The position numbers and the translations under genes are program-made. Of a stretch of 64,000 nt of DNA, positions 30,889 through 52,413 are shown one piece after another. The notes beneath the pieces are model-generated. The model saw nothing but the letters and a program-made list of their open reading frames with translations, searched no databases and was not told where the DNA came from. This stretch comes from Schmidtea polychroa (Eukaryota). Within the stretch, counting starts at the first letter, position 1. Every line of letters starts with the position of its first letter. The DNA is taken from positions 141,112,001 to 141,176,000 of the forward strand of contig CM097886.1 of the NCBI GenBank assembly GCA_044892525.1, given 5' to 3'.

Positions 30889-30973
30889 TCTATAATTATA
30901 TGTACAAATAGTTCTTATCGATACAGGTTCGATATTTTATTTACAATTATTTACATTTTAAGCTAGGTTTGGT

Positions 30974-31494: not shown

Positions 31495-34400
31495 CTATAT
31501 ACGTGAGTTTGGAGGGCGCTGAACGTTCCAGGCCTCCACCCACTGTTCTTGTTTGATATCACTTGGTCGTTTCACTCGATGTTGGAAGTTTCTGATTCGG
31601 GTCATTTCTAGTTCTCCGCGATGTCGTTTATCTTTAATTATTTTTATTGTTCCCCCCGTTATGATTAGGAATGCCCCTGTTATTATTATCCCACTGATCC
31701 ACATCATCTGCTTCACGCTTATACTCTCTGGTTTTTCCTTGTTTGTTAATGTTGATATCGCTTCTGTACTTTTCTCGTTTCCTCTTTTGCCATTTCCTTT
31801 CATCATTTCCCGTATTCTTGCTATTTCCTCGTTCATACCCTCCTTTGCCATCTTTTGTATTTTTTCCATCTCTTCCTCCGAAACATAGTTGTCCTGAGCT
31901 TCCTCACCAGTTTTCTTGTGCTTTCCTCCTTCGTTCTTTTCGTCGTGGTTTTTTCTTTTCTTTCCTCTTTTCCCCGGGTATCGTCGGCATTCTCTTTTTG
32001 ATTCGTTTCTCCAGATACAAACCGTATATTCCTTCGGGGGCTGCTGCTGCGTCACATATTGATGGCATCTCTCACCCGGTCCTAATCTTGAAATACAGAC
32101 TTTGTGCTCTTTTCTTGGTTGGAGCTGCGTTATTGCTACTTCGCCACCTTTTCCTAGGTGTACCTCTTTTCCTTTAACGTTCGTTATTCTTTTCCCGTCT
32201 CGGTTTCGGTATGCTTCTTGTATTCTTACTTCTGTTATTGGTTCTGTGTCCTCATTTATTAGTACTAGTTTCTGATACGCTCTAGACATACATCTTCCTA
32301 GTATGCACCTTTCCTTTAAGTCCCATTCTTCCTTTAAGTCCCACTGCTGCTCTTGTGCTTGCTTTTTCTTTTCTTGTTTTAGTTCGTCCTCTTTGCTATC
32401 TTGATTCTCCGCTTCTTTGGTTTCTTTTATCGTCCTCGTCCCTCCATGAGCTGTTACTAACTCTATCATGGTAAGCATAATTATCATTAATATCATATTT
32501 GTCTCTATTTCTTTGTTAGTGAAAGGTAGGCATACCCTCTGTTTTCCATTATTCGGTTTTTCCTCCTCTTTGGTCTTAGTTCCCGGGCTGTTTCCCTCTC
32601 TTTTCGTATCCGAATCCTTGTTTTCCGGTTTACCCTCCTCCTGTTCTCTTTTCTCTTTATCCTCCTTTCGGCCTTTTCCGTTATTGTCATCGTGTTTATC
32701 TCCCCCGCTGTCGTTTAAAATGTCGTCCTCGACATTTATATCGTTCAATAATCTGCGATATGCTGTTAGCACTCTGTTTCTTGCTAATTTTGCTTCGAAT
32801 TCAAACTCTTTTCTACCCGTTGCAGCATGTCTCTTTCTATTCCATTCTTTAACTAACTCTCTCAATTGCATACGACGATGTTTCCCAATTCGTTGTTGCT
32901 CGTTCTGATTTTGCGTGAATTTTAGGTCTTCTCTATTTAATACTATTAAAATTATTTTAGGTGTCCCCCCTTTAGTTAGGGTATTCTTTACCATCGCATT
33001 TTCTCCGTTTTCGTAGAATTCGTTTACATTTATCGCATATTTATTATTTTGTGGTACTCTCCAGGTTAATAATAATTTCATTGCTTCTAGATTTTTCCGT
33101 ACCGTATTCCATTGAAACTGAGATGTGTTTTTGCACATATTTTCAACTTCTTCTTTTGTCGCATTTTTGCAAATAAATCTGATCATTTCTAAGTTTGGCT
33201 GTATGGTTGCCCAGTCCAAGGTGGAATTTCCTTCATTGGACTTTTCGTCTAGTTTCGATCCTGATTGATGTAGGATGTGGAGTGTTTTTGGGTGTATTTT
33301 CGTTATAGCTGCATACATCATGGCGGTTTCACCTTGTTCATTTTTCGTGTTGGTTTCCTCGCCCATCTCTCCAAGGATTCTCACGATCGTTATTGCTCTA
33401 TTTTCTTTCGCCGCTAGTATTGCTTGTTGTAGGGGTGTTCTGGAATCCTTCGTTACCATCGTAAATGCTCGAGGCAAGAAGGTTTTGATTTTCCCGATAT
33501 CTAAATCCGTGGTTTGATCTCTTGCGTATGTGTGTACGGTTTTTATTATTTTGGACAATATTATTTCGTCTGGCAGCTCTAGCATTTCCTCAAAGAACAC
33601 TTCTTTTGCTTTGCGTATTATTGCCTCTTGATCTATACTCATTGATTTGGTTTCGATGACGTTGTTTGTGACCGTTTGGTTCGTTGTTGACTTTGATTCC
33701 CTGGATTTCTCATACCTTATTTTCGTTTTCTTTCCGTTTGGATTATTGATTCGTTCCTCTGCTGTAAGTATTTGGATAATATTCAGGTAATTCTCGCGGA
33801 TGTTATTCATTGTGTCCATCATATATAACACACTTACCGTTTCCCAATATTTATTTCGTACTTGGTTAGTAAATTGGAATAGGGATTTTTCGAATGTGTC
33901 GATTCGCTTTTTTGCTAACTGTTCGTCTTTATGATTTGTGAATTTTATCCCTCGTTCTAGTAATTGATTCGGGATTTCGAATAACTGATGTCCTTTCATA
34001 GCTTCTCTCATCAGCGTGTTCTCTCCTCTCGTGAACGCTTCGTTTACGTTGATCATATAATCGTTTCGAATTGGATTTCTCCATGTGATTAATATTCCGG
34101 TAATTGTCGTCAGTTTTTCTTTGATCGCTGTTAACAATCCATCATACATGTTTCCGACTTCCCGATTGTCCTCATATGATAGTAGTTCCATCAATGACGT
34201 GAACGCCTCGGTACTTCTCCCTTCGATAGCATGGTGTAGAGCGTTTTTCCGCTCGTGGTCTTGTGTAGTTATTTTCGATCCGGTATCGAGTAACGCGGTT
34301 ATAATGTCTTTTGTTTTACCTCTGTTTGCGGCTATCATTAATGGTGTGTAACCTTGGTTGTTTGTTTGTTCTGTTGATCGCTTGCAGTCGTGAAATGCTT

Positions 34401-37400
34401 CTATTGTTTCTAGTATTTGCTCGTTGTTACCTACTTTCATGAGTTTGTGTAATGGTGTGTCTCCGTAATGATCTGTTATTGTAAATAATATTGGCCATTG
34501 GCTTTTGACTACTCGCAATAATGGGTGTGTCCTTTCTCTATTTGCATAGTTCTCGATCATCGTCAATAATCCTCCTAATATTTCGAAATCTAATCGATCT
34601 TTTGCCCATCCAGGTATTTTAATTTTTACCTCCTTTACAATCTTTTCCGCTTCTGATGGTTGGATACCTAATCGTCCAGTGATCGGTTCTGCGAGTTGCT
34701 GCATCATGTTCATTCGGTAGGTTTGCGAACGTGTGGTTAATGTACGGCCTTCTGGTTGACTAGTGGCTGTTTTTGGAATTGATTTGCATCGTGCCACGTT
34801 TACGTATATTGGTCTGGTAAAGGGGTTATTTACCAATTTCACTCTTACATTAGTTTCGCCTACGAATAAGATCTCATATGGTCCTTTTCCGTTGCGTTGT
34901 AACTTTTTTGTGGTTCCTGGAATTAATTCCGGGGTTTCTATCATTACCCAATCACCTGTTTGGAACGTATGTTGCTTCACGTTTTTCTTTCGATCGTGTA
35001 AATCTTTATAACTTTCCTGGTAGAACTTGATATTTAATCCCGCAGTTTCCCAAATTTCTTGCATTCTTTCCTTGAATTTCGTAACATAATCATCGATCTC
35101 CATATACTGCGATATCGGTGGTTGGTATTCCAGGTCCATTGGCATATTACATTCTCTTCCGTACATTAATTTGAATGGGCTCATTTTCGTTGATGCGTGA
35201 ATCGACATTCTGTACGCCATAAGACATAGGTTTATATATTCGTCCCAATCTCGTTGGTGACGGTCAACGTAGTTTGATAACATTTGTATAAGTGTTCCAT
35301 TAAATCTTTCCGTCATCCCATTGGTTTGAGGGTGGTATGGAGATGTTCTTAGTTTTGCTATTTTGAAGTAATTTGTTACTTCGCTCATTATCTCACTCAT
35401 AAAATTTGTTCCCTGATCGGTTAAGATTTGTTTTGGTGTTCCATATCGGCAACATATCTCTTCTACCAAAATTTTTGCGATTGTTTTAGCTTTTTGGTCT
35501 GGCATCGCGAATGCTTCTGGGAATTTCGTAAGAAAGTCTGTGATCACCAGAATGTAAACGTTTCCTTTATCTGACTCTGGTAGTGGACCAACTACGTCCA
35601 TGGATATCATTGTCATTGGTTCTATTGGTACTGGCATTGGCGTTAAAGGTGCTTTCCATTTCGATCCCGTATTCTTCCTGGTTGCACAAGTTAGACAATT
35701 TTTTACCCATTCGGTTACATCTTCCGTTAACGTAGGCCAAAAATATTTCTGTTTCATTCTTGCTAACGTCTTTTTCGATGACATATGTCCTCCCAATCTC
35801 CCATCGTGATATTGCGTTAGTAACTCTTTTCGTCGGTTTTCCGGTATACACATTAATCGTTTTTCCCCATCCATTATCAGCAACCAATCTTTCTCTATAA
35901 TATATCGGTGTCGGTGTTTATCCATATGTTCTTTTAATTTTTGGTCTTTCGCATATACATCTGTCTTTCCGGTTTTTACATAATCGATAATTTGTTTTAA
36001 TTCCGCGTCCTCTTGTTGGTCCTTTCGTAATTGACAGAAATCCAAATCTTCCGCTACTATTAAGCATATGCGTTGCATTTCTGAATCCACCAAATCTGGG
36101 AAAATAAATCTTGACATACAATCGGCGTTGGCATTTGCTCTTCCCGCTTTGAATTTTATAAATGGGGAGTATTCTTGCAATTGCATGGCCCATCGCATCA
36201 GTCTACTGGACGCTTCTTTATGTTGCCCTAACCACACTAATGGTTGATGATCCGTGGTTATGCATATCTCATGTCCCCATAGTAAATATCGGAAGTGTTT
36301 GATAGCTTGTATTATAGCCAATGCTTCTCGTTCTGTTACCGAATAGTTCTTTTCGTGCTTTTTGAATGTTCGACTGTAATACCCGATTACTCTCTCTTTT
36401 CCCTCATCGTCTAATTGTCCCAGAATCGCGCCTGCCGCGTACCCGCTTGCATCCGTTGCCAATAGAAATGGCTTCTTAAAATCTGGGTGTACGAGGATAG
36501 GTGCTTCGATTAGTTTATCTCTCAGCGTTTCGAACGCCTGTTGTTGTTCTTTTTCCCAAATGAACGAAATATCCTTCTTTACTAATTCCTGGATTGGTTT
36601 TGCAATTCCTGCATAATTTTTGATAAATTTGCGATAGTATCCGCATAATCCTAGAAATTCCTGAACTTGGGTGACAGTTTTCGGTGCTGGACATGTTTTT
36701 ATTTTCTCAATGTTTCTTGGATCTGGCTCCTTTCCTTTAGCTGACACTATGTGTCCTAAAAACGTGACTTTTTCCTTTGCCCAATCGCATTTTGATGGTT
36801 TGAGTTTGAGTTTCCACTGTCTTAATCTAATAAATACGTTTCGGATATCTTCTAGATGTTGTTCAAATGTCGCTGAATAGATTAGTAAATCATCAATATA
36901 TACCATACATTGTTTGATTCCATGGGTGACAAAGTTCATACACCGTTGAAATGATGCTGGTGCGTTAGTCAGTCCAAATGGCATTTTCCTGAATTGATAT
37001 AGATCTCGTCCCAACGTGAAAGCTGTTTTCTCTTTGTCCTCATCTTTGACTTTAATCTGCCAGTATCCACTTTTTAGATCTAAAGAAGTAAAATATGCTG
37101 CCCCTTGCAACATCAATAACATCTCATTGATGTCCGGCAATGGATAGGTATCTCTCTTGGTCACTGCGTTTAACTTCCGATAATCGATACAGAATCGTTG
37201 GGTGCCATCTTTCTTTTTTACCATGACCACTGGGAATTGCCAAGGTGAGCAACTTGGTTCGATTACTTTTGCGTCTAGCATCTTTTGTACTTCTGTTTCG
37301 GCTATTTCTTTCTGCATTTCTGCTAGCTTGTATGGTCTCAATGCAATTGGGGTTTCGTCTATGAGTGGTATTGCATGTAAGGTAACATCACATGTACCCA

Positions 37401-40400
37401 AGTCTAAATCTGAGATGGCGAATATATCTTTATATTCTACCAACAATCGGTGCAATTTTTTCTTTTCGTCATTCGTCAACAACATACTATCTATTGTCCA
37501 TAATTCATCATCTTTGATCATCTCGTTGGTCACTTTCGGTAATTCTATGTCCATCATTGGGGTCAATCTTCCCAATTTTTCGTTCTCATAAATGATTTTG
37601 TCTTCCTCTTCGAAATTCGTGATGTTGAGCGGTATCACTCCTTCTTGGTTTATTGTGATTATTTCTCTCGCGAGTGGTAATTCTCGTCGCTTTTCGAATG
37701 ACTTGCTTGGTTCAAAGATAACTTCTCCTTCCATACCCGTATCCACTTTTATCTGACAAATCATCTGCGATTTTGCTGGTACTATTATTTTTTCTGGACA
37801 TCTGATGACTGCATTCATTTTGCATATTCTACCGGTTTTGTCTTTTAAACACATGGTTGTTAAGTCAATTACGACTTCCTTTAACAATTCTGGCATCAAA
37901 TCCGTTCCGATTATGCATGGTACGCTAAGTTTTGGTATTACTGCCAAATACGTTTCAATTTCGTTGTCCTGGTATCTCAATGTAGTCCACCATCTTCCGA
38001 CCACGTCCACTGTTTCTTTACTACATGCTATAATGTGAATTGTTGTTGATTCGATATCCTTCCAGTGTTTACTGGGGATTTGATTAATCGCTATCGCTGA
38101 TACATTAGCTCCGGTGTCTATCATAGCATTGGTTTCTTTACCATTGATTTGAATCATAACTGTTACTGCTGGACCTCCAGGTAAACTCATCGCTGCTATT
38201 GTTCTTACGTCATCTGCTTGATCTACACTTTTGGTACGTCGTGTTGGCATATAATGCATACCGGGTTGACTCGGTAATTGCGGATACATATTTTGTGTCA
38301 TGGTCAAAGCTGTTTGTGGTCCCACGATATCCGGTGGTATATAGCTTCCATTGGCGATCCAGGTGTTTGTCTTTTCCTTTTCCCAATATGGTGCCGTTTC
38401 CATTGGTTTTTCGTTTGGGTTTCTGTTTGGATAAAGACATTTATCGTTCCCGTTATCATCGTCGTCACTATCGCTGTTAGATGATTGGCTTCTAAATCGG
38501 TCCAAGAATTTTGGCTTATTCTTTTTCAATTGTCGTCTTGTCGCTTCATCGTACATTACTTTCCGGAATCGTCTGCCTACTTCCTCGTCGGTTCCTTTAA
38601 TCTTTGTTAATATTTTAATCAATCGCTTTATCCGATGAATGTCTTTTGAGTGGCCATGTAATACCATGGTCTTAGCTAAAAATGGTAAGAAGCCTACTAT
38701 CATTTTCCAATTAACTTTCTTTTCCCGCTTGTATATATCGAAACAAGCTAACATTTGTGTTAGTATTACTCTGACTATCTGAATTATGAGTATGATCCCT
38801 AATATCCCGGCCATCATTTGTCCAAAAACTAAGAATCTTCCCCACATTGCTTTCATCATGTTTGACGTAGCTTGTTGAAAATGGTCTGGCGATAATAGCA
38901 GCTCGTAATTCGGGCCTGATTGATAGTTTGTGCCCCCAGTTATTGTTACCATATTAGACAAAATGGATTCTCGTCTGGCTGGAAAGAGTACGTTAAGTCG
39001 TGCTGTTTCTAGATCTTCCGGGGAATACATACCACCGTTTGACACGTCTATAGGTTTGAAATCCAGCTCTGTGGCGAGTTCTATTAATCCAAATTTCTTG
39101 GGCTCCTCGGATATGGTTTTTCCCGGTAACATCATCCATTTCCCATCGGGCCTTTCATATAAAGGTCCGTATGCATTAGAACAGTTAAAGAGATTTGGGT
39201 AGAAACCCACTGGATTCATAATTCTAGTGACTGGTTGGACGAATCGATTTTGTCCTTTATAACGGATTTCTAATTCATTTGCACATCTCTTTTCGGGTAG
39301 TATGGATTTTTCTGGCATTCGTGCATACGTCTTGGTACACTGGTATGTGTACATCACTTCTCCTACCATTCTACCAAAGTGTCCATCTGGTAATGGGAGT
39401 GATGGCATCGTGTTATCTGGGTGCGTTATCGCAATAGCTAGCTTTGTTTTCAATATTTCTTTATTCAATGAACAATCGTTTTGTATCAGATCGTAATATA
39501 CTTTTTGCAAGGTCGTTTGTCCACGATGAAATAGAAAATCCATTTTATTATTTGCATATAAGTATAGTTTTACGTCCTCCGTTGCTATCTTTCCCACTGC
39601 TCTATCGATTATTTGTCTCGACATATAGATGCCTGCGTAATTGGTTTTATATACTATACTGTCACATTTGGTGGTTTCTTTCTCTTTGATAAACCTCATA
39701 CCTAGATCTGGATCGTCTGTGATTAATGCTGTTGGTGTCTTCTGCGTTGAAAGTCTCTTTTCTCTGGGAGATGGTGGCATTGGTTTTCCATTTCGCATCC
39801 TCACTCTGTCGTTTCCATCCTCGTCGTTCTCGTTCTCATATATTTCTCCTTTTACTTCATTGAACAAAGCACTTTTTAACAGTTGGAGTCGGCATTTTTG
39901 GGTATTAGCTTCATAGATTATAGTTGATACTCCTGTCCTACATACGTTTTCTGTAGCTCTACACGCTGGGTTGGTCTTCATTTGGTAATTATTTGCGTCA
40001 AATTGCGCTTCGTATTCTTTTAATTCGACCGTGTAAGACTCGATCACTACAACTCCCGATATTACCTCGCCTCGGATCGTATACGTACCTCCGTTACATG
40101 ACCCATCTGATGATTTTACTTTTCCGGATACGTAAACACTTTCGGTTTTAATCATTCCAGTTTGTCCGTGAATTGTCACTCCGTTATGCATTTTTAGCGC
40201 TCCGGTTCTAAATAGCTCTTTACAATCCTCTCGTTGTATTGATACGATTTCTTTATCCAGACCGGGTAGTATAAGAGTCGAATACGAATATTGTCCACAG
40301 TAATATGCGAGTACCTTTTTTGATACTACGCATTCCCTTGCTTGCGTTCTGATGAAATCTGATTCTTGATATACATGGTAAGTAACTTTTGTTCTCACGA

Positions 40401-43400
40401 TGTCCAATTTGTTGGGTGAGGCTTGTCTGCATTCTTCTATGTCTCTCAATGAGTATTTATCTCTCATTATCATGTTATCACAATCGTAGATGGTGAAACC
40501 TGTTGCTCCACTTGTGCACAACATCCATATCATCATAGTCATCATTAACGAATTTATTGATGCTTTTCTGCTTGCGGGATCTTTCATCGGTAGTTCCCAT
40601 TCTAGTTCATTTAACAATTTTTTCAATCTAACTTGCATCGACCTTTCTTGCTCATTTTTCCGTGGCGCTTGTATCAGTCTTTTCCATCCTCCTGCACGAA
40701 TAATGTGTGGTTCAATAGTATTCTCTATGATTGAAACGGTCATTTCTACATGATTTGCAAACTGTTTATTTGGTATTTTCCTCGCAGCTAGTCCCATCAA
40801 ATTATACATCAAATAAGTGATTACCACTAGGTGATGCTCGTCATCATTTGCATTTGTCGTGAGCTGCTCAATCACTCTCTTTGTTTCGTCCCAATCCGTT
40901 TTGGTGGTTTTCGTTTTCTCTTTGATTAACTTTGGGATTATCCCCGAAATGGTGTGCCATAATTGTCTAGCTTCCGTACTGGCTACTTTCCGTTGCCACA
41001 AACGTCTAAGTTGTGGGTTTGTTATTATTAACATATCTTTTAACAATTCTCGTATCCATTTTTCTCCTCTTTCGATCGTTGGTTGGGCTTCCTTTAGATC
41101 CCATACTATTTTATCCAATTTTTCTAATCGAACTTGCCCTTGTTCTTGCTTTAATTGTTCTTTGGTTTTGAACTCAGACTTTTCTCCTTGTTTCTTGGGT
41201 CTTCCTTTTGCCCGTTTTTCCATCATCGTTCCTGCTTCTCTGGTATTTTCGTAATTCGGATTTCTTTCGTTATCCGTTCTGGGTAATGAGCTATCGTTAT
41301 TTCTTAGCCACTCATTCCATTCGTCTATTATTTTGTCGGTTTGACTTTCTGGTGTTACTTTCGTTGGTTCTCTTTGCTTCTGGAATTGTTCATCCGTTTC
41401 GGTTTCCGTAGTATTGTCGATGATTTCTTTGATGTTTAGTTTCGTGGGTTGTTGATAACTCGTTGATGGCTGGTTGTTAGTCCACATTTCGGCTCCTGTC
41501 GGCCATCTTACTAATAGCGGTGATCTTTCTCCTGATTCATCGTCACTATCTTCCAGGATTATCTCTTCAACTTCTTCAGTTTCATTAGATTTACTTGGTG
41601 CTTTGTTCGGACTTGGAGTACTCAAACTGCCTTTTGTTGGTTTAATAATTTTACTTTTCCTTTTTAACGGTTTTCCCAACGTTTCTGCCATTGTTAATAC
41701 ATTTGTCTCTTCCAATCTCATGGGTGTTATCCCGACGTCTGCATTATCGTCTAGTGATTTTCCGAACAGTTGCAGATGGAATGGAGTTTCATATGCTAAT
41801 TTCTTTTTTAATTCTCTAATTTTTGTTGTTGGATGCACCTCTAGTTCCTCGATGCTCTTGTCCGGATACTTGATTCGGATGTGATACCTCTCCTGGGTGT
41901 CTTGTGCCCATTCCTGATTTCTCCATTTTCGAATAATTTGTTCTAGCTGTTCTGGATACCATTCATTATATTGCCGGTATTCCTCTATTGCCTTTGCCAT
42001 TCCTCTCAGATTGTGGATATTCTCTGATGTCTTTAAGATGATGTTAGCCAACGCTACTACTTGGCGTTTTTGATTTTTCGCTCCCATTGCTAAGATATCG
42101 CCTAATTGTTTATACCTTTCTGTCTCTTCTCGTTCTCTTGCTTCCGTCGCTTCCTCGCCGTCCATATCAGCATATTCCCGTTCCTTTTTCCTCATTGCAT
42201 GAATATGTCTCGCTTCATTTTCGCTTTCTGATGTGACATCCGTCTCGCTTTCGTCATCTGATGTCTGTCCCCTTGCTTCCTCTTCATATTCTGGGGGTTC
42301 CTCTTCTTCTTCCTCCGATTCACTTTCTGTCTCACCGATGTCTGTTTCTACGAAGGTTCCTTTCCGGATTTCCCATTCCTTACTTTCTGCATTCCACACT
42401 CTTTCCCATGGGGTTCGTCTGCAAGATCTGGTATTTAATTTCGTGATTTTTCCTTGTAGCTCTTTTTCTTTTAACCATTGTTGGTGGATTTCAATTATTT
42501 CTGTAGATTTTCGATATAACGTTTTCATCCGGTCTCGTATTTCTTTTTGATATGTTACATCTCTTGTTCGGAATTCATCCATTGGTACTATCCTGATTAT
42601 CTGATGATTGTCCCACATACCCATTTCGCTTAACGAGGTGTCGTCCTCCGTTCGTAATATTATCTTATCGTACATCATGACTACATCATCCACCATACCA
42701 TCACTACTTTCGCTACGTACCTTTTCCGTTATCTCTTGGTTTATTTTTGATACCAAGTCATCCACTGTACTCTGATTGCTCATTTTTATTCGTCGTTTTT
42801 CTTCGTTCGGTAACCATATGGTTATTTCTAACCTCTGTGGCTGGGTTTCTTTTAACCTTCCATATTTGTGGATCAAATTTATGGTTCTCCAATCACTCAT
42901 TCGGAGCATTTCTGTATCTCGCAACCGGCTCATTAGTTCGTACATGGCTGGGGCTCGTCTGGTGATGAGTAAATCCCAGTTGTCTTCTACTTGTTCTTGA
43001 ATTTGTTTGATCAGCTTATCCAGGTTTCGTCTCAGAGTACATTGTTTTATTTGTTCTAATTTCAATTTGATATTAAAATCATATTCTGCCTTGGCATCTT
43101 TAGCCCAATCGTAAAGGTTGGCTGGTTGTTTTTCTTTATGCAACTTCAGTATTTGCGTTTCTCCTGGCCATATTAGTGCATCTACTAAGTGCATATCTGG
43201 TTTGATCTGTTCTCCTTGGTATTGATACAGATATTCTTTCTTTCTCGACCTTCCCAAATGTTCTCGTATCCAATCGAAAAGTTCGTCGGTGACTGTATTT
43301 TTTATCCACATTCTTTCAAGTCCTCTACTCGTTCCAATTTTTATTACATACCGCGTGGTATCGGCCTGCTTCATTTTTTCCATATAATTTTTTATACTTG

Positions 43401-45348
43401 ATTTCTCCTCGTTTGGTATTAGATCTTTCTCGTTTCTTTCCAATTTCATCACTTTTTGCACGAATCGCCTGAATGGTATTACGTCGATGAACTCTTGGTT
43501 CCTCACTACTACTGGGAGTATTTCGGCTACCTGTTTTATCGCTTCCTCCCTTGCTTTTCTCAACTTTATTTCGATATCTTCGTCTTCACTTTCACTGGTT
43601 ATCTCGTTTCCGCTTTCTTCCTCTTTGATTTCCCCTTTTGGGGGTTCGCTTATTTCATTCGGCTGTAGTATTTCTCCACCCAAACTACTTACATAATCTT
43701 CTTCTTCGTCTGACGATGCTACATCTTTTGTCCTTTTCATCATATTGATTTGCAAGTTTCTCATCCTTGGTACTTTCTTTAGTTTCTTTCTTTCGAATAT
43801 TGTTGTTTCTTCTGGTTCTGATTCTTGTAGCATTTGGTGGTTTAGTTGACTGGTTTGTTCCTTGCTCTTGTTATTTTCATCTTCTGTCTCGGTTTTCGCT
43901 TTATTATGTTCTTTTTCGATTTTATCCTTCATCTTTTTCCAGAATATTTTCTGAATTCTCTGGTTTCCTTTTAAAATCGTGGTTGAATTCTCTGTTTTCA
44001 TTTCCGTTGTTATTTCTTTTACCTTTTCTGGTTCAGTCATGGGTACTACCCTTGGGCTTTTCCCGTAATTGTAGCAATACTGGCTCTTCATGTCTTTTAC
44101 TAACCTCATCATATTTATTCGCAATGGTTGTTCTTGTCGTTGTTGGTTGCGTTCTTGTTTTATCCTCTCTTCCTCGGCCTGTAGCCTTTGCCCTTCTTGT
44201 ACATGTTGATGCACTTCATAATTGTTGAGATTTTCGGTACTCCTCATCATACGTATATTCTGGGTTTGTTGTGGTGCTGATTCTTGTCTTGGTCTCATCA
44301 TTTGCTGCATCATCTGTTTCATCTGCGAAATTTCCTGCATAACGTTCATTTGTTTTCCTTCGTTAGGGTTACTTTGTCGTTGCGGATTCGCTATATAATT
44401 ATTATTTCGCTGTGGTGGTCGTTGTTGTTGGCCCCTTTCTCGGCAATCTCTGGAGATGTGACCTGGCTGACCACAGTTAAAACAGCCTCGCAATTGGCAT
44501 ACATTTTCGGTATGTCCACGCCGTCCGCAACGATTACAATTTGAATTTCTATAACAATCTCTGTCCCAGTGTCCTGGTTTACCGCATGTTCGGCACTGCT
44601 TGTTATCGTTCATATTTCGCCGATTATTGAAATTGTTCTCATTATTCGGGTTGTTACGATTACCATTATTCCCGTTTGATCGTCCTTGTGGTGGTTTGAA
44701 AATTTGGTGCGCTCCTGGTATAAATTGATTCATTTTCGGTTCTTGATTGTTGTTATCTCCGTTATCCGCTTTCGCTATTGCTGTCGCTATCCTTCCCTCC
44801 TCTTGCATAATATTCATTTGAGCTGGAAGGTGGAGCTCGCATCTCGTAGCCCAATCTATGGCTTCCTCTAATGTTTTGCACATTTGACAACCTACTGAGG
44901 CTCTTACTTCTTCTCGGCGTAATCCCTCTATGAAATAACCAATCAGATTTTCTTCGGGTAATTTTCCATTCATTGCTTTCTTCGCTAATCTCCGCAATTC
45001 ACTGGCATATAATGTTATCGATTCGTTTGCTCTTTGTTTCCTATTTGCTAGTTCGCCCAACGCCTGGTTGATTGGCTTACTGGCTCCGAAGGTTTTCTTC
45101 AGGAATGTTTTAATATCTTCCCACTTTTCTAATTTCGTGTCTCTCTCTTTAGCTTCTAAATATACCTCTAATGCACTATCGCACAAAAACAACGGCATCC
45201 TTTTACTAATTGCTTCGGGTGTCCATCCACACACAGTGATATAAACTTCAAAATTAGTTATGAACGTTGCTAGCTTGTTTGCATTTCCGTTGAACGGTTC
45301 TCCTCTGAACTTCTCTTTATACTCGTCGGTTTTTACGACATTCGTCAT
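31495..45348 (-). CDS. 4617-aa Gag-Env-Pol-ankyrin polyprotein
   Basis: Single ORF containing Gag CA and three CCHC knuckles, UBL-like and Bcl-2-like segments, a glycoprotein, protease (IDTGA), RT (PFGL, YIDD), RNase H (TDAS, EREA, TDH), integrase (HHCC, DDE, GPY), ankyrin repeats and a TM. Confidence 0.97.
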   Translation of the reverse strand: MTNVVKTDEYKEKFRGEPFNGNANKLATFITNFEVYITVCGWTPEAISKRMPLFLCDSALEVYLEAKERDTKLEKWEDIKTFLKKTFGASKPINQALGELANRKQRANESITLYASELRRLAKKAMNGKLPEENLIGYFIEGLRREEVRASVGCQMCKTLEEAIDWATRCELHLPAQMNIMQEEGRIATAIAKADNGDNNNQEPKMNQFIPGAHQIFKPPQGRSNGNNGNRNNPNNENNFNNRRNMNDNKQCRTCGKPGHWDRDCYRNSNCNRCGRRGHTENVCQLRGCFNCGQPGHISRDCRERGQQQRPPQRNNNYIANPQRQSNPNEGKQMNVMQEISQMKQMMQQMMRPRQESAPQQTQNIRMMRSTENLNNYEVHQHVQEGQRLQAEEERIKQERNQQRQEQPLRINMMRLVKDMKSQYCYNYGKSPRVVPMTEPEKVKEITTEMKTENSTTILKGNQRIQKIFWKKMKDKIEKEHNKAKTETEDENNKSKEQTSQLNHQMLQESEPEETTIFERKKLKKVPRMRNLQINMMKRTKDVASSDEEEDYVSSLGGEILQPNEISEPPKGEIKEEESGNEITSESEDEDIEIKLRKAREEAIKQVAEILPVVVRNQEFIDVIPFRRFVQKVMKLERNEKDLIPNEEKSSIKNYMEKMKQADTTRYVIKIGTSRGLERMWIKNTVTDELFDWIREHLGRSRKKEYLYQYQGEQIKPDMHLVDALIWPGETQILKLHKEKQPANLYDWAKDAKAEYDFNIKLKLEQIKQCTLRRNLDKLIKQIQEQVEDNWDLLITRRAPAMYELMSRLRDTEMLRMSDWRTINLIHKYGRLKETQPQRLEITIWLPNEEKRRIKMSNQSTVDDLVSKINQEITEKVRSESSDGMVDDVVMMYDKIILRTEDDTSLSEMGMWDNHQIIRIVPMDEFRTRDVTYQKEIRDRMKTLYRKSTEIIEIHQQWLKEKELQGKITKLNTRSCRRTPWERVWNAESKEWEIRKGTFVETDIGETESESEEEEEEPPEYEEEARGQTSDDESETDVTSESENEARHIHAMRKKEREYADMDGEEATEAREREETERYKQLGDILAMGAKNQKRQVVALANIILKTSENIHNLRGMAKAIEEYRQYNEWYPEQLEQIIRKWRNQEWAQDTQERYHIRIKYPDKSIEELEVHPTTKIRELKKKLAYETPFHLQLFGKSLDDNADVGITPMRLEETNVLTMAETLGKPLKRKSKIIKPTKGSLSTPSPNKAPSKSNETEEVEEIILEDSDDESGERSPLLVRWPTGAEMWTNNQPSTSYQQPTKLNIKEIIDNTTETETDEQFQKQREPTKVTPESQTDKIIDEWNEWLRNNDSSLPRTDNERNPNYENTREAGTMMEKRAKGRPKKQGEKSEFKTKEQLKQEQGQVRLEKLDKIVWDLKEAQPTIERGEKWIRELLKDMLIITNPQLRRLWQRKVASTEARQLWHTISGIIPKLIKEKTKTTKTDWDETKRVIEQLTTNANDDEHHLVVITYLMYNLMGLAARKIPNKQFANHVEMTVSIIENTIEPHIIRAGGWKRLIQAPRKNEQERSMQVRLKKLLNELEWELPMKDPASRKASINSLMMTMMIWMLCTSGATGFTIYDCDNMIMRDKYSLRDIEECRQASPNKLDIVRTKVTYHVYQESDFIRTQARECVVSKKVLAYYCGQYSYSTLILPGLDKEIVSIQREDCKELFRTGALKMHNGVTIHGQTGMIKTESVYVSGKVKSSDGSCNGGTYTIRGEVISGVVVIESYTVELKEYEAQFDANNYQMKTNPACRATENVCRTGVSTIIYEANTQKCRLQLLKSALFNEVKGEIYENENDEDGNDRVRMRNGKPMPPSPREKRLSTQKTPTALITDDPDLGMRFIKEKETTKCDSIVYKTNYAGIYMSRQIIDRAVGKIATEDVKLYLYANNKMDFLFHRGQTTLQKVYYDLIQNDCSLNKEILKTKLAIAITHPDNTMPSLPLPDGHFGRMVGEVMYTYQCTKTYARMPEKSILPEKRCANELEIRYKGQNRFVQPVTRIMNPVGFYPNLFNCSNAYGPLYERPDGKWMMLPGKTISEEPKKFGLIELATELDFKPIDVSNGGMYSPEDLETARLNVLFPARRESILSNMVTITGGTNYQSGPNYELLLSPDHFQQATSNMMKAMWGRFLVFGQMMAGILGIILIIQIVRVILTQMLACFDIYKREKKVNWKMIVGFLPFLAKTMVLHGHSKDIHRIKRLIKILTKIKGTDEEVGRRFRKVMYDEATRRQLKKNKPKFLDRFRSQSSNSDSDDDDNGNDKCLYPNRNPNEKPMETAPYWEKEKTNTWIANGSYIPPDIVGPQTALTMTQNMYPQLPSQPGMHYMPTRRTKSVDQADDVRTIAAMSLPGGPAVTVMIQINGKETNAMIDTGANVSAIAINQIPSKHWKDIESTTIHIIACSKETVDVVGRWWTTLRYQDNEIETYLAVIPKLSVPCIIGTDLMPELLKEVVIDLTTMCLKDKTGRICKMNAVIRCPEKIIVPAKSQMICQIKVDTGMEGEVIFEPSKSFEKRRELPLAREIITINQEGVIPLNITNFEEEDKIIYENEKLGRLTPMMDIELPKVTNEMIKDDELWTIDSMLLTNDEKKKLHRLLVEYKDIFAISDLDLGTCDVTLHAIPLIDETPIALRPYKLAEMQKEIAETEVQKMLDAKVIEPSCSPWQFPVVMVKKKDGTQRFCIDYRKLNAVTKRDTYPLPDINEMLLMLQGAAYFTSLDLKSGYWQIKVKDEDKEKTAFTLGRDLYQFRKMPFGLTNAPASFQRCMNFVTHGIKQCMVYIDDLLIYSATFEQHLEDIRNVFIRLRQWKLKLKPSKCDWAKEKVTFLGHIVSAKGKEPDPRNIEKIKTCPAPKTVTQVQEFLGLCGYYRKFIKNYAGIAKPIQELVKKDISFIWEKEQQQAFETLRDKLIEAPILVHPDFKKPFLLATDASGYAAGAILGQLDDEGKERVIGYYSRTFKKHEKNYSVTEREALAIIQAIKHFRYLLWGHEICITTDHQPLVWLGQHKEASSRLMRWAMQLQEYSPFIKFKAGRANANADCMSRFIFPDLVDSEMQRICLIVAEDLDFCQLRKDQQEDAELKQIIDYVKTGKTDVYAKDQKLKEHMDKHRHRYIIEKDWLLIMDGEKRLMCIPENRRKELLTQYHDGRLGGHMSSKKTLARMKQKYFWPTLTEDVTEWVKNCLTCATRKNTGSKWKAPLTPMPVPIEPMTMISMDVVGPLPESDKGNVYILVITDFLTKFPEAFAMPDQKAKTIAKILVEEICCRYGTPKQILTDQGTNFMSEIMSEVTNYFKIAKLRTSPYHPQTNGMTERFNGTLIQMLSNYVDRHQRDWDEYINLCLMAYRMSIHASTKMSPFKLMYGRECNMPMDLEYQPPISQYMEIDDYVTKFKERMQEIWETAGLNIKFYQESYKDLHDRKKNVKQHTFQTGDWVMIETPELIPGTTKKLQRNGKGPYEILFVGETNVRVKLVNNPFTRPIYVNVARCKSIPKTATSQPEGRTLTTRSQTYRMNMMQQLAEPITGRLGIQPSEAEKIVKEVKIKIPGWAKDRLDFEILGGLLTMIENYANRERTHPLLRVVKSQWPILFTITDHYGDTPLHKLMKVGNNEQILETIEAFHDCKRSTEQTNNQGYTPLMIAANRGKTKDIITALLDTGSKITTQDHERKNALHHAIEGRSTEAFTSLMELLSYEDNREVGNMYDGLLTAIKEKLTTITGILITWRNPIRNDYMINVNEAFTRGENTLMREAMKGHQLFEIPNQLLERGIKFTNHKDEQLAKKRIDTFEKSLFQFTNQVRNKYWETVSVLYMMDTMNNIRENYLNIIQILTAEERINNPNGKKTKIRYEKSRESKSTTNQTVTNNVIETKSMSIDQEAIIRKAKEVFFEEMLELPDEIILSKIIKTVHTYARDQTTDLDIGKIKTFLPRAFTMVTKDSRTPLQQAILAAKENRAITIVRILGEMGEETNTKNEQGETAMMYAAITKIHPKTLHILHQSGSKLDEKSNEGNSTLDWATIQPNLEMIRFICKNATKEEVENMCKNTSQFQWNTVRKNLEAMKLLLTWRVPQNNKYAINVNEFYENGENAMVKNTLTKGGTPKIILIVLNREDLKFTQNQNEQQRIGKHRRMQLRELVKEWNRKRHAATGRKEFEFEAKLARNRVLTAYRRLLNDINVEDDILNDSGGDKHDDNNGKGRKEDKEKREQEEGKPENKDSDTKREGNSPGTKTKEEEKPNNGKQRVCLPFTNKEIETNMILMIIMLTMIELVTAHGGTRTIKETKEAENQDSKEDELKQEKKKQAQEQQWDLKEEWDLKERCILGRCMSRAYQKLVLINEDTEPITEVRIQEAYRNRDGKRITNVKGKEVHLGKGGEVAITQLQPRKEHKVCISRLGPGERCHQYVTQQQPPKEYTVCIWRNESKRECRRYPGKRGKKRKNHDEKNEGGKHKKTGEEAQDNYVSEEEMEKIQKMAKEGMNEEIARIREMMKGNGKRGNEKSTEAISTLTNKEKPESISVKQMMWISGIIITGAFLIITGGTIKIIKDKRHRGELEMTRIRNFQHRVKRPSDIKQEQWVEAWNVQRPPNSRI
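33165..34480 (-). other. Ankyrin-repeat region of the polyprotein (two clusters)
   Basis: GDTPLHK, GYTPLMIAA, KNALHHAI; RTPLQQAI, GETAMMYAA, GNSTLDWAT. Confidence 0.85.
34810..38160 (-). other. pol: Pol region: aspartic protease, RT, RNase H, integrase
   Basis: DTG at about 38115, YIDD at about 36895, TDASG at about 36450, H-H-C-C zinc finger at about 35690-35810, D-D-E core and GPY at about 34880. Gypsy domain order. Confidence 0.97.
38640..40560 (-). other. env: Envelope glycoprotein domain (chuvirus/gB-like, class III fusogen type)
   Basis: Signal-like LMMTMMIWMLCTSGATG followed by FTIYDC, YSLRDIEEC, ECVVSKKVLAYYCG, DCKELF, DGSCNGGTY, and C-terminal FGQMMAGILGIILIIQIVRVIL. The Cys spacing resembles chuvirus-like glycoproteins known from invertebrate retroelements. 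Confidence 0.8.
44443..45310 (-). other. gag: Gag capsid-like domain and three CCHC zinc knuckles
   Basis: LFLCDSALEVY...RKQRANESITLYASELRRLA...YFIEGL; CRTCGKPGHWDRDC, CNRCGRRGHTENVC, CFNCGQPGHISRDC. Confidence 0.95.
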
Positions 45349-46659
45349 GATTGGTGTTCTAGGTTCGTCTGTTTCTTTTAAATTGTCTAACGATGTGATT
45401 AAACTTTGGGCTGATAATTCCTCGGTTGACGTTGCTAAACTATTAGTGATATCGGACAGACTTTCTCTACTTCGAGATCGACTAGGGGTATATCCGAGAT
45501 TTTCTTGGTCGAATATGGGTACTTGATTGGTTCTTCTGGATCCTTGTGATATTCCTCTTTGATGTTTAATGGATCGTCCTCTTTTGAGTTGTTGTAATTC
45601 GTCTCCTGAAAATTATACGTCTCCGGGCTTACTAGAAGATCTAAGATTGGGTTTATCCGTGATTCCTTTCTTACGCTTCTTGGTAATTAGCGGCTATTGA
45701 ATTGGACGCGTTCGGTTCTGATTGTGTTTCCTTCGATAAATATTCTGTATGAATCTGCTACTGAGATCCTGAGGAGATTTACTAATCCTTGGCAGATGGC
45801 TGCTAATACTTCTTCCGTTCTGGAGTCTTCCGGTTGCTGTGTCTCTCGGTGCGGGTTCTGAATGGATTTATCCTTGGTTGATTGTCGATTTTCTTCGAAT
45901 TCCTTTTGTGCAGGTTCTGGATTGTCTTGGTTGGCTGGATTGGCTTGATATCTAAAATGAAAAAATGATCTCGTGTTGCATTTGCTTACACGACTTCATC
46001 ATTCTTTCTACAACATTCAAAAACAGACACCTTTTAGGTTTCTGTTTGTGCTTCCCCTATCTTTTGTGAAATCCTTTCTGCGGGTTATAATATCCCATCA
46101 GCCCGTATTTTCCGTCGATTTTAAATTATCTATATGGGGTAGTAACAATTATCTATAAAGTCGTAATAATTATCTATTCGTTATCAATTATAGTAAAAAT
46201 AGGTCGTTGTCGGTCTCTGCTTATTACCCCCCTTCGTTTTCTTATTCCTTTGCGCTGTTGTCGCTGTTTTACTTTTCGTATTTACTATTATCCCACTCGG
46301 TACTACTCTGGAACCGATAAACATACATTTTCCCGGTTTACCCAAAAAAAAATTCCGTAGAGTTTCTCTACTTCACTGGGATCCCTTTAATTAGTTAGTT
46401 ACTTTCCTCTTTACTCATTATCATTGTTTCATCTATTCTTTATTTTCTATTATCTCTTTAATTCGTTTCCTTCTTCCCTTTCCTTTTTCCTTATAATCTT
46501 ATTTTCTTTTCCACGAGCTCGTTTATTTCCTCTCTAAACTCGAATTTTCAAAATTACATTCAATTTGTTCTAGCTAGCTTTAATATTCCATATCACTAGT
46601 AATTTAAATATTATCTCATTGTAGCTTAACTGCTATCTCTCGCTTTTCTAGGCCTTTAC

Positions 46660-47470
46660 GACTGGCTGGCAGCTCAATCTTCTTCTCAGCTCAATCTTCT
46701 TCCTTCTGATCGGTTAGACTATTCAACAACTCGATCTTACGACTGGCTGGCACTATTCAACAGCTCAATCTTCTTCCTTCTGATCGGTTGGACTATTCAA
46801 CAACTCGATCTTACGACTGGCTGGCACTATTCAACAGCTCAATCTTCTTCCTTCTGATCGGTTGGACTATTCGACAACTCGATCTTACGACTGGCTGGCA
46901 CTATTCAACAGCTCAATCTTCTTCCTTCTGATCGGTTGGACTATTCAACAACTCGATCTTACGACTGGCTGGCACTATTCAACAGCTCAATCTTCTTCCT
47001 TCTGATCGGTTGGACTATTCAACAACTCGATCTTACGACTGGCTGGCACTATTCAACAGCTCAATCTTCTTCCTTCTGATCGGTTGGACTATTCAACAAC
47101 TCGATCTTACGACTGGCTGGCACTATTCAACAGCTCAATCTTCCTCCTTCCTGATCGGTTGGACTTTTCACAACTCGACCTTACGACTGGCTGGCACTAT
47201 TCAACAGCTCAATCTTCCTCTTTCCTGATCGGTTGGACTTTTCACAACTCGACCTTACGACTGGCTGGCACTATTCAACAGCTCAATCTTCCTCCTTCCT
47301 GATCGGTTGGACTTTTCACAACTCGACCTTACGACTGGCTGGCACTATTCAACAGCTCAATCTTCCTCCTTCCTGATCGGTTGGACTTTTCACCACTCGA
47401 CCTTACGACTGGCTGGCACTATTCAACAGCTCAGTCTTCCTCCTTGACCGGCTGGATTATTCGACAGCTC
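46660..47470. repeat. 74-bp tandem array (about 10 copies plus partials) in the element leader
   Basis: gactggctgg recurs at 46741, 46815, 46889, 46963, 47037, 47111, 47185, 47259, 47333 and 47407. Confidence 0.97.
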
Positions 47471-48050
47471 GGCTTCAATATTCCTTGCTCTGCATGCTTC
47501 TATTTCTCTTTTCTTCTTTTACTCTAGTTTACCATTTTCTCTGTCTACTTTTAATTTGTCGACTTAATCTTTACCGCTTGGGAGTGTTTCCCCTTTTCCC
47601 CCCTTGCTCAAAACGCACGACGATCGCGATGATCCATTTCTACATTGGCATGGTGATCAGTCATGTCGCAAAAACTTCTCATCATATGCGATGGTACCCC
47701 GCCCTACGCTTCTTACTTGGGTTGATCAGTTATCCCCTCCCAACGGGTTCTTGCAATAAGACGTACCGCCCGAAGGTGGCTCGGTTTGTACCCCTGCAGT
47801 CTATATTGGGACTAATTCCACGTTATTCCACCCTCTCTTCATTTGATTCCAAAAAAAAAATAAAACAAAACAAACACGCAAATATTCATTCGTCATGCAA
47901 ATTTTATTAGTCCTAATCATCAAAACTTTTTAAAGACGAATTTATTTATCATAAACATAAAGATTGAATCATTAACAGTACGTGTTACCTCAACAATTTC
48001 ATGCATTCTTGTTCAAACATCGTATACTTGCTGTTACATCGCCGGCCGTT

Positions 48051-48536
48051 TCATTCGCCATAATAGACCATATGGGTCTCTTTTATTTCATATTTGCACA
48101 TCGTGCATCTTTTTAGGTCTTTTACACACTCTTCACAGTGACTGAGGTGTCCACACGGCAAGAATAATACGCGAATAGGACGGAGTTTGCAGGCTATACA
48201 AGTTCGTAATTGGTTAACTTTTTCCTGTATTTTTTGTTCGATTGCATCTGGTATTGTATTTAGTGAGTCTTTTAGACGCTGATAATCTAGATTTAATGTT
48301 GGGTGGTTCAATCTCTCTTGATACCACTGATATACGGTTTCGGGGTTTATTTTTCCATCTGGGCGACTTAGGCCTGTGGCTAATATCATATGATTAGGTA
48401 CGACTGGTGTTTGTCCGATTGCTTGCAGTAATATCGCGTTGATTTTTTCTCTTTTATGCGTCAGTGTTGTTAGGGAGTCGTTTTCTATATCGATAAACTT
48501 GAGCAGTTGTTGCATTTGGTTCGCGAATTCTGTCAT
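48051..48536 (-). CDS. IAP/MDM2-type C-terminal RING finger protein without BIR (161 aa), upstream of gag
   Basis: CIACKLRPIRVLFLPCGHLSHCEECVKDLKRCTMCKYEIKETHMVY at the extreme C-terminus, matching the IAP RING pattern (C..C....v.F.PCGH..C..C...l..CP.Cr..I). Confidence 0.85.
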   Translation of the reverse strand: MTEFANQMQQLLKFIDIENDSLTTLTHKREKINAILLQAIGQTPVVPNHMILATGLSRPDGKINPETVYQWYQERLNHPTLNLDYQRLKDSLNTIPDAIEQKIQEKVNQLRTCIACKLRPIRVLFLPCGHLSHCEECVKDLKRCTMCKYEIKETHMVYYGE

Positions 48537-48853
48537 AGCTGTTGGAAAAGTAATGTTTTAATAATATGTAGTAAATTAATAGTTAATTCGTTAATTGGTT
48601 TCTTTAACCATTGTTAATTATTTAATTTGACTACTTTATCTCCTTTATTTATATATATCCTTAATTTTCCTATTATCTATATTTTGATTTTCTCTACTTA
48701 GTTCCTAATGTAATTTAATAATCAATAGTCACTTTGCATTCGTCAAGCAATGGTCGGTTGAAAATAGAAAATCGATGTGATAAATCCCTTTAATTTTGTA
48801 TGAAACTCCCGGTGAATTTCGCATTCGTTAATAGAAATTTCGATCGACTGTAG

Positions 48854-48871
48854 ATCCCGGCTGAGCCCCCA
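48854..48871 (-). promoter_or_regulatory. Primer-binding site, tRNA-Pro type
   Basis: Minus strand TGGGGGCTCAGCCGGGAT versus the canonical tRNA-Pro PBS TGGGGGCTCGTCCGGGAT (16/18), 7 nt inside the 5' LTR boundary. Confidence 0.8.
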
Positions 48872-49412
48872 AAAATCATGTTGGGGTTACACCTCGGCTG
48901 ACCACTCTACCATGTTGACGGGTCTAAGGGTTGATTGTCCATCTCGAATAAAAGGTGCCACCGATTTGTCAACCTGGAGTGAAACCCCACATAACTTTCT
49001 TCCAACATAGTGCCCGTGAATCACTTCACGTTGGTACTGCACTATGCAGGCGAGACGCCAGCAAGCAGGTGAGCTTCTGCCTTAAAACTACTCCTTGCTG
49101 AGGCCTCGACTTCCCGTTCACGACTGCCGATAGAAGGGCTTACGTCCATTTCCTTACACAACCACTTATCAGGACTCGCTGAATGCAAAGTGGGAATTTC
49201 TCACTAGATCTTGCGGGTTCTCTACTCAACCCACTTAATTAAAGTCTAATTATTCATGAACGAAGACGTGTAAGACAACAAGATTTATTAATTTCAATGT
49301 TATGACACAAGGATTCAGCTGTACACTTTACTAACGTTTGTCGAAAGAAGAGAAAACATCATAATCAACATAGATCGGATCCTTGTTCCTCATCCTGACC
49401 GCCACTGGGATT

Positions 49413-50201
49413 TTATTGTTTCTCCCATTCAGTGTCGGCGAATAATTCGTCGAGGTTAAAAAACTCGGAAGCGTTCTCTTCCCACATTACGCCAGCGGCT
49501 GATATGATTCGTGCCGAGGGTCCCGTTGTTAGGTCGATGGACACGTGAGAGTTGCCACCGTTGGTTGAGTCCTCTATTGATGGGATGTTTGGCTTTGCAG
49601 TAGCGCGCTCGCGCTGTCTCTTCTTGCGCTCTGCACGAGAGAGTTGTTTGCGCTTGGGTTTGCTTGAAGATGCCACTTGCAGAAGGGTGACTGATACAGA
49701 TGGACTAGCAGTGGGGGGCTTACTGGTACCCGTGATGACAACATCTGGTCGCTTGGGGGACAATTCGGTTTCGACGCAGTCTCGGCACGGTCTCTTGAAC
49801 GGTGGAGTTGGATTCGAGGAACGGTTGTGATGAGGCGGAAAGATGTCATCGGCCTCTCGGATGGGAATTTGCACTATTTTCCGGTTTGTAGCCGCCTGCA
49901 CGTAAACCTTATGCAGTGCCTCGGATTGTTCTCTGATTAGACTTCTTTGGGCACGGCTCTCAGATATTAGCGCGTCCCGGCAATGCTCGCTACGATCGAG
50001 CTTCTTTTGGATCTCTTTCATCCGAGCGGGACTAAACCATGTCCCTTCCAGCTCGTCTATCTTCCTCTTGTAACGTCCAATCTGAGTTTGTAGGTCCTTT
50101 ATCACCGTATTTTTATCCGCGCACGAGAAGCACGGCCGTAATGCTGATTTAGTGGTTGGTAGCATGCTTGCTATAAATAATACTAATGAAATGTAGAACA
50201 T
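49413..50201 (-). CDS. LTR-encoded 262-aa protein of unknown function
   Basis: Hydrophobic N-terminus, CFSC and CRDC pairs, coiled coil, basic KPKRK...RKKRQRER stretch and acidic-aromatic C-terminus. A diverged homolog at 5744-6257 supports coding function. Confidence 0.75.
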   Translation of the reverse strand: MFYISLVLFIASMLPTTKSALRPCFSCADKNTVIKDLQTQIGRYKRKIDELEGTWFSPARMKEIQKKLDRSEHCRDALISESRAQRSLIREQSEALHKVYVQAATNRKIVQIPIREADDIFPPHHNRSSNPTPPFKRPCRDCVETELSPKRPDVVITGTSKPPTASPSVSVTLLQVASSSKPKRKQLSRAERKKRQRERATAKPNIPSIEDSTNGGNSHVSIDLTTGPSARIISAAGVMWEENASEFFNLDELFADTEWEKQ

Positions 50202-52379: not shown

Positions 52380-52413
52380 TATATATATCAAATTCTTATT
52401 TGTGCGGACCAAT
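52380..52413 (-). promoter_or_regulatory. Putative LTR core promoter (CCAAT box plus TATA-like box)
   Basis: CCAAT at 52409-52413 and TATATATAT at 52380-52388, in the correct order for minus-strand transcription. Mirrored at 26104-26108 and 26075-26083. Confidence 0.4.

Follow-up and report, generated by a model that had tools for sequence, protein, structure and literature searches.

A 64,000-nucleotide stretch of the Schmidtea polychroa genome (assembly GCA_044892525.1, contig CM097886.1, positions 141,112,001 to 141,176,000 of the forward strand; referred to below as the window, in the numbering of which all coordinates are given unless another locus is named) contains a gypsy-type retroelement of 30,176 bp, which lies on the minus strand and resembles the Burro elements of planarians. 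The long polyprotein of this element appears, from profile comparisons, to carry a real, selected and degenerate homologue of the Bcl-2 family directly ahead of its envelope protein (Env). The Bcl-2-like domain, as delimited by profiles and a structural model, corresponds to polyprotein residues ~1500–1650 (40,666–41,115), and its better-modelled core, from alpha4 to the second Bcl-2 homology motif (BH2), to 40,666–40,905. It is followed by a 41-residue linker, partly helical in the model (40,561–40,683), by a hydrophobic segment predicted to be the internal signal peptide of Env (40,498–40,560), and by Env itself, a fusion glycoprotein of the Monjiviricetes type (38,761–40,497; PF24664, E = 1.6e-66) with its transmembrane segment at 38,761–38,817. 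A reading made from the letters of the sequence alone had placed a Bcl-2-like domain just before the Env signal, and this placement is confirmed: the peptides it quoted lie on the minus strand in the frame of the open reading frame (ORF) at 31,495–45,612, from TKRV starting at 40,884 to GGW ending at 40,684, and the hydrophobic segment and the PF24664 match come next.

The window domain alone gives a faint signal. In Pfam, the Bcl-2 family (PF00452) was its best or second-best match, at E = 0.023–0.088 and 14–16 bits versus a cut-off of 31.4 bits, and a single-sequence phmmer search of PDB returned one unrelated match and no Bcl-2 protein. With a profile of 14 Bcl-2 rows from outside retroelements, the window domain scored 12.3 bits, the best of 500 shuffles reaching 10.0; with a profile built without the window family, it scored 54.5 bits versus 11.4. 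Judged through its relatives, the likeness clearly exceeds chance. Profiles made exclusively from retroelement domains matched PDB entries for Bcl-2 and Bcl-xL at E = 4e-4 when nine rows were used, and Bcl-xL at E = 7e-8 when 19 were used, the best 60 of 112 rows in this second search all being Bcl-2 or Bcl-xL. A profile match to the Bcl-2 family, a check named beforehand, was found in this way, in the same register as the Bcl-xL alignment that the sequence-only reading had made by eye. A Pfam match to Ribosomal_L17 (E = 0.026) was dismissed as due to chance, as no sister family shows it. No Bcl-2 cluster was retrieved from the ESM Atlas for the window domain or that of family B (see below), and word-index protein searches matched 0 of 211, 0 of 738 and 0 of 6,764 candidates; as the third failed to retrieve proteins that the collection does contain, little weight attaches to these blanks.

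Structure prediction agrees with the profiles, if weakly, and would be insufficient by itself. AlphaFold run on the single sequence gave a predicted local distance difference test score (pLDDT) of 46.6. With 21 rows, all from retroelements, the mean pLDDT was 54.9, rising to 64–79 from alpha4 to BH2, where the model has the helix order of the Bcl-2 bundle around a central hydrophobic alpha5–alpha6 hairpin. The best 39 Foldseek rows were all Bcl-2 proteins (best E = 0.05), and the top nine rows of a VIA-align search of 48,161 chains were also Bcl-2 proteins (Z = 7.9–8.9); an unrelated designed protein scored 7.9. Bcl-2 proteins thus rank first in three structure libraries, at non-significant scores, and the best viral match was to an adintovirus Bcl2 (E = 0.34). 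The AlphaFold and Foldseek check that had been suggested for the fold therefore came out in part: the ranking is that of a Bcl-2 protein, but neither the scores nor the mean pLDDT are convincing, and the homology proposed from the sequence is supported by profiles and only weakly by fold.

Searches of genome G000 with PF00452, PF24664 and one sister domain revealed four further polyprotein families, B (L064), C (L081), D (L086) and E (L094), and the domain lies directly ahead of the Env signal in all five families examined. The order from Gag to reverse transcriptase was confirmed for families B and C. PF00452 was the best match for all five B, C and D domains scanned, three of them with E = 1e-6 to 8e-6 and the remaining two with E = 0.002 and 0.01; the sister families scored 17–30 bits, a family-B copy with a stop 33.3 and the metagenomic protein P0002 31.4, the cut-off value. 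The nine-row profile found 11 proteins among 1.84 billion. Five have the domain, the signal and the start of Env in one frame, and P0012 has Gag and the domain, with Env past a stop; the rest are three context-less fragments, one full-length cellular-type Bcl-2 and one short stand-alone Bcl-2. At least six metagenomic relatives consequently carry the domain at the same place. Env relatives numbered 0/44 in viral contigs and 1/266 in JGI metagenomes. In P0008, several protease-like repeats follow Env. The single B and C copies studied (L061–L062 and L081–L082) are far shorter than the window element, with LTRs of ~1.06 kb, spans of ~13.4 and 17.7 kb and polyproteins of 3,053 and 3,334 residues, and both retain the Bcl-2–signal–Env cassette; no TRAF match was obtained in the scanned parts of these two copies.

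The motifs by which Bcl-2 proteins are usually known are unevenly kept. The counts given here refer to 21 aligned retroelement rows, which are not independent, 12 of them coming from five families of one genome. At BH1, where Bcl-xL has NWGR, the window domain has DDEH (40,834–40,845, from the profile register and alignment columns), and the Trp is found in none of the 21 rows, so the BH1 motif is degenerate, as had been claimed. Asp or Glu occupies the position of the Gly in 16 rows; the Arg is replaced by Lys in 10 and by His in the window family. NWGR has been lost clade-wide and, because it is absent, the domain is not to be classified as a canonical pro-survival Bcl-2. The BH2-like motif (40,684–40,713) retains GGW in the window domain and in 19 of the 21 rows overall; the first Trp of EPWI is kept in 16 rows and is a His in the window family. 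BH2 had been put forward as the best-matching part, which holds for GGW, but this motif is also worn.

The domain is under strong purifying selection. Relative to the subfamily copy L078, its two halves have proportions of nonsynonymous differences (pN) of 0.035 and 0.041 and of synonymous differences (pS) of 0.67 and 0.81, corresponding to a pN/pS of ~0.05, and amino-acid identity is 93–94% in the domain versus 88% in Env; the copy L076 behaves alike. In families B to E, the domain is constrained, yet less so than Env. The family of the window element is young and abundant: in a search of genome G000 with the domain, 150 of 932 candidates were scored, all of which were 94–100% identical over the domain, three having an in-domain stop and ~66, by hand count, lying in frames of at least 4,700 residues. 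The usual frame of the intact copies is 4,732 residues long, versus 4,705 in the window, due to an in-frame difference of 27 residues outside the Bcl-2 domain.

The sequence-only reading had also suggested that the Env signal peptide might double as a membrane tail anchor for the domain. A hydrophobic stretch precedes a conserved Y/F-D-C in 13 sequences, and in sister families the PF24664 match begins at this segment, which is therefore most simply explained as Env's own signal. Cleavage was predicted with von Heijne's (-3,-1) rule for signal peptidase, requiring a small residue at -1 and a small or aliphatic residue at -3, in registers counted from Y/F-D-C. A site three residues before the Y/F is present in 11 of the 13 sequences and one directly before it in nine, the other seven registers giving 0–6; in the window, the predicted cut falls between 40,498 and 40,497. 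In polyproteins of this topology, such as those yielding flavivirus capsid and hepatitis C virus (HCV) core, the anchor stays on the upstream chain after the signal has been cut. The anatomy, then, fits a tail anchor, as does the short, basic spacer of family C (22 residues), but the long spacer and moderate hydrophobicity of the window family do not favour it, and the suggestion stands in part. Mitochondrial targeting of Bcl-xL has been reported to need basic residues on both sides of the transmembrane segment (PMC2172731). A tail anchor, if present, would point to the endoplasmic reticulum (ER) rather than to mitochondria, because insertion would be co-translational and no basic residues would remain beyond the signal once cut. 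ER-localised Bcl-2 and Bcl-xL have been described as acting on calcium and on Bax/Bak at the ER (PMC3386223, PMC2172311, PMC2172724).

The explanation that we favour, with a probability of about 0.45, is that a conserved Bcl-2-family domain in a Burro-type polyprotein retains the cut Env signal as an ER tail anchor and dampens host death signalling without the NWGR contact. The internal signal would send Env into the ER lumen, and cleavage by signal peptidase would leave the chain running from Gag through Bcl-2 to the signal on the cytosolic face, much as flavivirus capsid and HCV core are anchored. The protease of the element would then free Gag upstream, and the anchored domain might act on death or stress signalling at the level of the ER, through Bax/Bak at this membrane or calcium release by IP3R. 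The producing cell would be kept alive, alongside the action of the TRAF and RING proteins of the element.

Several observations weigh against this explanation. Among the 21 rows, the Trp of BH1 is never kept, the Gly once and the Arg twice, the last two being residues reported to be important in interactions within the family (PMC9027176). The ER-only form of Bcl-xL gave no protection from apoptosis in one study (PMC3386223). The spacer between BH2 and the hydrophobic segment varies from 22 to 50 residues (22 in family C, 35 in D, 41–45 in the window family and 50 in B), and the segment of the window element is the least hydrophobic measured, with a Kyte–Doolittle value of 1.5 versus 2.4–3.0 in sister families. 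In the metagenomic relative L104, an in-frame stop (3058–3060), which may be a mutation, an error or a site of read-through, separates the Bcl-2-like domain from the Env signal. In all four informative pairs from families B to E, the domain changes faster than Env (dN/dS, the ratio of nonsynonymous to synonymous rates, being 0.05–0.40 for the core and 0.03–0.06 for Env; a fifth pair was saturated). As for the fold, no Foldseek match lies below E = 0.05, the VIA-align Z scores are below the level that this tool asks of helical bundles, and the N-terminal helices mostly have a pLDDT below 50, such that the groove cannot be judged from this weak model.

Among the alternatives, the one that survives best, unlikely as we consider it, is that of an ordinary viral Bcl-2, released from the signal, either through linker cleavage by the protease of the element or through a cut within the membrane, and binding the BH3 of Bak or Bax through a divergent groove, like the poxviral proteins F1L, M11L and DPV022. 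Several viral Bcl-2s without clear BH motifs are reported to bind Bak, Bax or Bim nonetheless (PMC11209288), and the Lys found at the BH1 Arg in almost half the rows would suit such a protein, as would the weak signal and long linker of the window family, which allow release, and the presence in the genome of host-type proteins with a BH3-like motif (L034). The acidic residue that mostly replaces the BH1 Gly and the His at the Arg in the window family speak against it, and no protease site was identified. A complex predicted, with no alignment used, for the domain and a 32-residue host BH3-like stretch from L034 scored 0.02, which argues neither for nor against binding. A role in particle assembly, in which the domain would be a matrix-like, membrane-proximal spacer linking Gag with Env at the ER via the signal peptide that they share, with no part in cell death, is quite unlikely. 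In every lineage for which context is available, the domain occupies the same position, after the Gag region and ahead of the Env signal; this fixed place, the retention of core residues with loss of the BH1 binding residues, and the AT-hook-like motif just upstream in several lineages are all compatible with this role; but any spacer could do such a job, the element bears other cargo for host control, and the conservation of BH2 would be left unexplained. A repurposed signalling scaffold, with the Bcl-2 fold, a closed groove and an effect on innate or TRAF signalling, perhaps together with the element's own TRAF, seems distinctly improbable. The vaccinia proteins A52 and B14 provide a precedent, as they are described as having kept the fold without the groove and as affecting NF-kB via TRAF6/IRAK2 or IKK (PMC2494871), and the clade-wide loss of BH1 and the TRAF ORF in the same element would be in keeping with it. 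The persistence of GGW in BH2, the fact that the best profile matches are to Bcl-xL and Bcl-2, and the short B and C copies, which keep the domain without a TRAF match in their scanned parts, are difficult to reconcile with a scaffold. That the domain is a relic in decay, or a helical region resembling Bcl-2 by chance, as the single-sequence score below the cut-off and the lack of a Bcl-2 cluster in the Atlas might suggest, is largely refuted by the profile match, the shuffle test and the low pN/pS, and is very improbable indeed.

The source of the domain was sought among the other Bcl-2-like genes of genome G000, many of which are dispersed (L046–L060) within Polinton-like elements, as seen in three locus pairs examined; these elements have PolB motifs, an A32-type ATPase, an rve integrase and a TBP-like gene. 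The loci L046–L060 and L111–L122 are multi-copy, some with an intron and a tail of their own, and represent at least two or three distinct Polinton/adintovirus-like families. A Tyr in alpha5 is present in 19 of 21 retroelement rows, five of five Polinton-type rows and none of nine cellular-type rows, most of which have Phe, and loss of the BH1 Gly is common to the retroelement domains and the Polinton-type Bcl-2s. Three of the four highest scores against the retroelement profile belong to Polinton-type proteins (39.0, 31.6 and 23.3), the other being that of the cellular P0006 (24.6). Likeness alone was the basis for assigning P0002, P0005 and P0010 to the retroelement type and P0011 to the Polinton type. 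A tree, unrooted and with long branches, was built from 25 of 30 rows and 122 columns, five half-length rows having been dropped. Its 15 retroelement rows fall on a single starred branch (98/94), which shows one origin for the sampled retroelement copies; of the 16 retroelement-type rows available, nine had been recruited by the same retroelement profile. The retroelement and Polinton-type rows stand apart from seven cellular-type rows at 92/90, on an unstarred branch, and three alternatives with a cellular sister were not rejected by the approximately unbiased test (p = 0.127, 0.111 and 0.121; the L039/L041 pair was not among them). The retroelement domains therefore group weakly with Polinton-borne Bcl-2s, and a Polinton donor is a lead only. 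In a fuller scenario, which we regard as rather unlikely, a gypsy-lineage, retrovirus-like element would have acquired its Bcl-2 gene once from a co-resident Polinton or adintovirus, would have discarded the tail of this gene and would employ the signal peptide of its captured RNA-virus Env as the tail anchor, a single signal-peptidase cut then launching the fusion protein and installing an ER-anchored, NWGR-less inhibitor of death. Two other Bcl-2 loci were encountered: a cluster of seven near-identical host-type genes with a BH3-like motif and NWGR within 0.9 Mb (L031–L037, G000:C4, ~89.9–90.8 Mb), and a Bcl-2 with intact NWGR, closely similar to vertebrate Bcl-2, on a 129-kb viral contig (L123:3206–3457).

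Most of the known viral mimics of Bcl-2 are those of DNA viruses. In Burro elements, such a mimic sits inside the polyprotein of a reverse-transcribing element, and this basic observation is not new. The arrangement, the novelty of which had been implied by the sequence-only reading, is already in print for Burro/GYPSM1 of planarians, in which a BCL2-like motif has been described, separated from the protease by a mononegavirus-like env, with function left to experiment (PMC6431247, citing Jurka 2007 and Grohme 2018). According to this description, in which HHpred was used for further domain annotation, Burro/GYPSM1 shares with the window element a length of more than 30 kb with LTRs, one polyprotein of ~4,700–5,100 residues, a Gag with two to three CCHC knuckles, the BCL2-like motif, env between BCL2 and the protease, the order protease, reverse transcriptase, RNase H and integrase, ankyrin repeats, and MATH/TRAF (PMC6431247); the likeness is one of published architecture. 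The TRAF is a separate downstream ORF in the window element, whereas it is inside ORF1 in S. mediterranea and in an upstream ORF in D. tigrina (PMC6431247). The BIR and dUTPase-like domains of Burro have no Pfam match at E up to 1 in the eight window proteins scanned. BURRO1 is reported to be expressed on piwi knockdown (PMC8532177). Signal-peptide anchoring, BH1 loss and a Polinton origin were not found in the literature searched, outside which Grohme 2018 and Jurka 2007 may discuss anchoring, and the Burro review contains no discussion of anchoring, BH1 loss, selection or origin (PMC6431247). The present analysis adds the borders of the domain, predictions of a cut site and of an ER location, the clade-wide loss of NWGR and strong selection. 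A single genome with five families, many copies of which are intact, provides material for a narrowed test of function. If the signal does double as an anchor, this would be an economical polyprotein design, and a Polinton source, if true, would imply that genes have passed between DNA mobile elements and RNA ones.

The retroelement domain aligns with cellular Bcl-xL and Bcl-2 over alpha4–alpha6 and BH2 with one single-residue gap, and a hydrophobic segment follows BH2 in both. Unlike these proteins, it has lost NWGR, its N-terminal helices are not recognised and it is part of a polyprotein; in the window domain, an internal signal peptide would serve as the tail and a His replaces the first BH2 Trp. 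The Bcl2 homologues of Polintons and adintoviruses (PMC8502044; L046–L060) are likewise cargo of mobile elements, with the BH1 Gly lost and the alpha5 Tyr, but they stand alone as genes, possess a tail of their own and in some cases an intron, and have retained the BH1 Trp. Poxviral Bcl-2-fold proteins (F1L, M11L, DPV022, A52 and B14) also have divergent or absent BH motifs, and some of them figure among the VIA-align rows (Z = 6.5–7.7); they differ in being stand-alone proteins of DNA viruses, and no sequence kinship with them was found.

The element is bounded by LTRs that end in TG...CA, at 48,879–52,750 (5', 3,872 bp) and 22,575–26,445 (3', 3,871 bp), which are 99.92% identical (two mismatches, one gap) and flanked by a 4-bp target-site duplication (52,751–52,754 and 22,571–22,574). 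The polyprotein frame (31,495–45,612; 4,705 residues from stop to stop) is unbroken, with its first Met at 45,348, and its Pfam matches follow the order Gag, a weak Bcl-2 match (residues 1572–1643), Env, protease, reverse transcriptase, RNase H, integrase and ankyrin. The Gag capsid domain (44,914–45,195; PF03732) precedes three CCHC knuckles read from the translation; a basic motif ~30 residues ahead of the Bcl-2-like domain (41,191–41,205) is presumably AT-hook-like, and a similar one is present in family B, P0007 and P0012. The protease, reverse transcriptase, RNase H and integrase (35,329–38,160; Pfam) have the gypsy order, and the first block of ankyrin repeats (PF12796) is at 34,186–34,425. 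Two accessory proteins have recognisable domains: a TRAF-like ORF downstream from the polyprotein (29,500–30,936; RING, zinc fingers, coiled coil and MATH; PF21355, E = 2.4e-27) and an ORF upstream from it that ends in a C3HC4 RING (48,051–48,557; PF13920, E = 3.7e-11) and has no BIR match in Pfam. Ubiquitin-like cargo, which also characterises Burro/GYPSM1, gives a weak Pfam signal (E = 0.014 in the window element, 0.001 in family C). Of 30 bins, contigs from three runs guessed to be RNA covered 30, 22 and 7, and those from a fourth run, the kind of which is not recorded, covered all 30. None of the 15 joints listed out of 39 had depth in the guessed-RNA runs, and these data carry no weight on expression or splicing.

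Towards the C-terminus of the polyprotein, a second signal-like segment (32,440–32,496) is followed by ~250 residues with no Pfam match, partly beta-rich by eye, and by a final transmembrane segment (31,636–31,692), and the polyprotein may release the region 31,636–32,496 as another membrane protein. Three further accessory ORFs without a Pfam match at the cut-off lie between TRAF and the 3' LTR (26,676–29,364, minus strand), encoding two coiled-coil proteins (370 and 258 residues) and a 222-residue protein with signal-like and transmembrane-like segments. Each LTR contains an ORF (49,413–50,207 and 23,270–23,902, minus strand), of 264 residues in one and 210 in the other because of a single one-base difference between the LTRs, and a short ORF at 5,835–6,299 has a similar 'PCFSCADKN' motif. 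The 5' leader contains a 74-bp tandem repeat array (46,613–47,500) between the RING ORF and Gag. A primer-binding-like stretch (48,849–48,878, minus strand), which starts six bases inside the 5' LTR boundary, resembles what we take to be a tRNA-Pro site; no tRNA genes were found in the window. Outside the element, two transposase-like ORFs were recognised by eye, at 18,935–21,123 on the plus strand and 62,396–63,181 on the minus strand.

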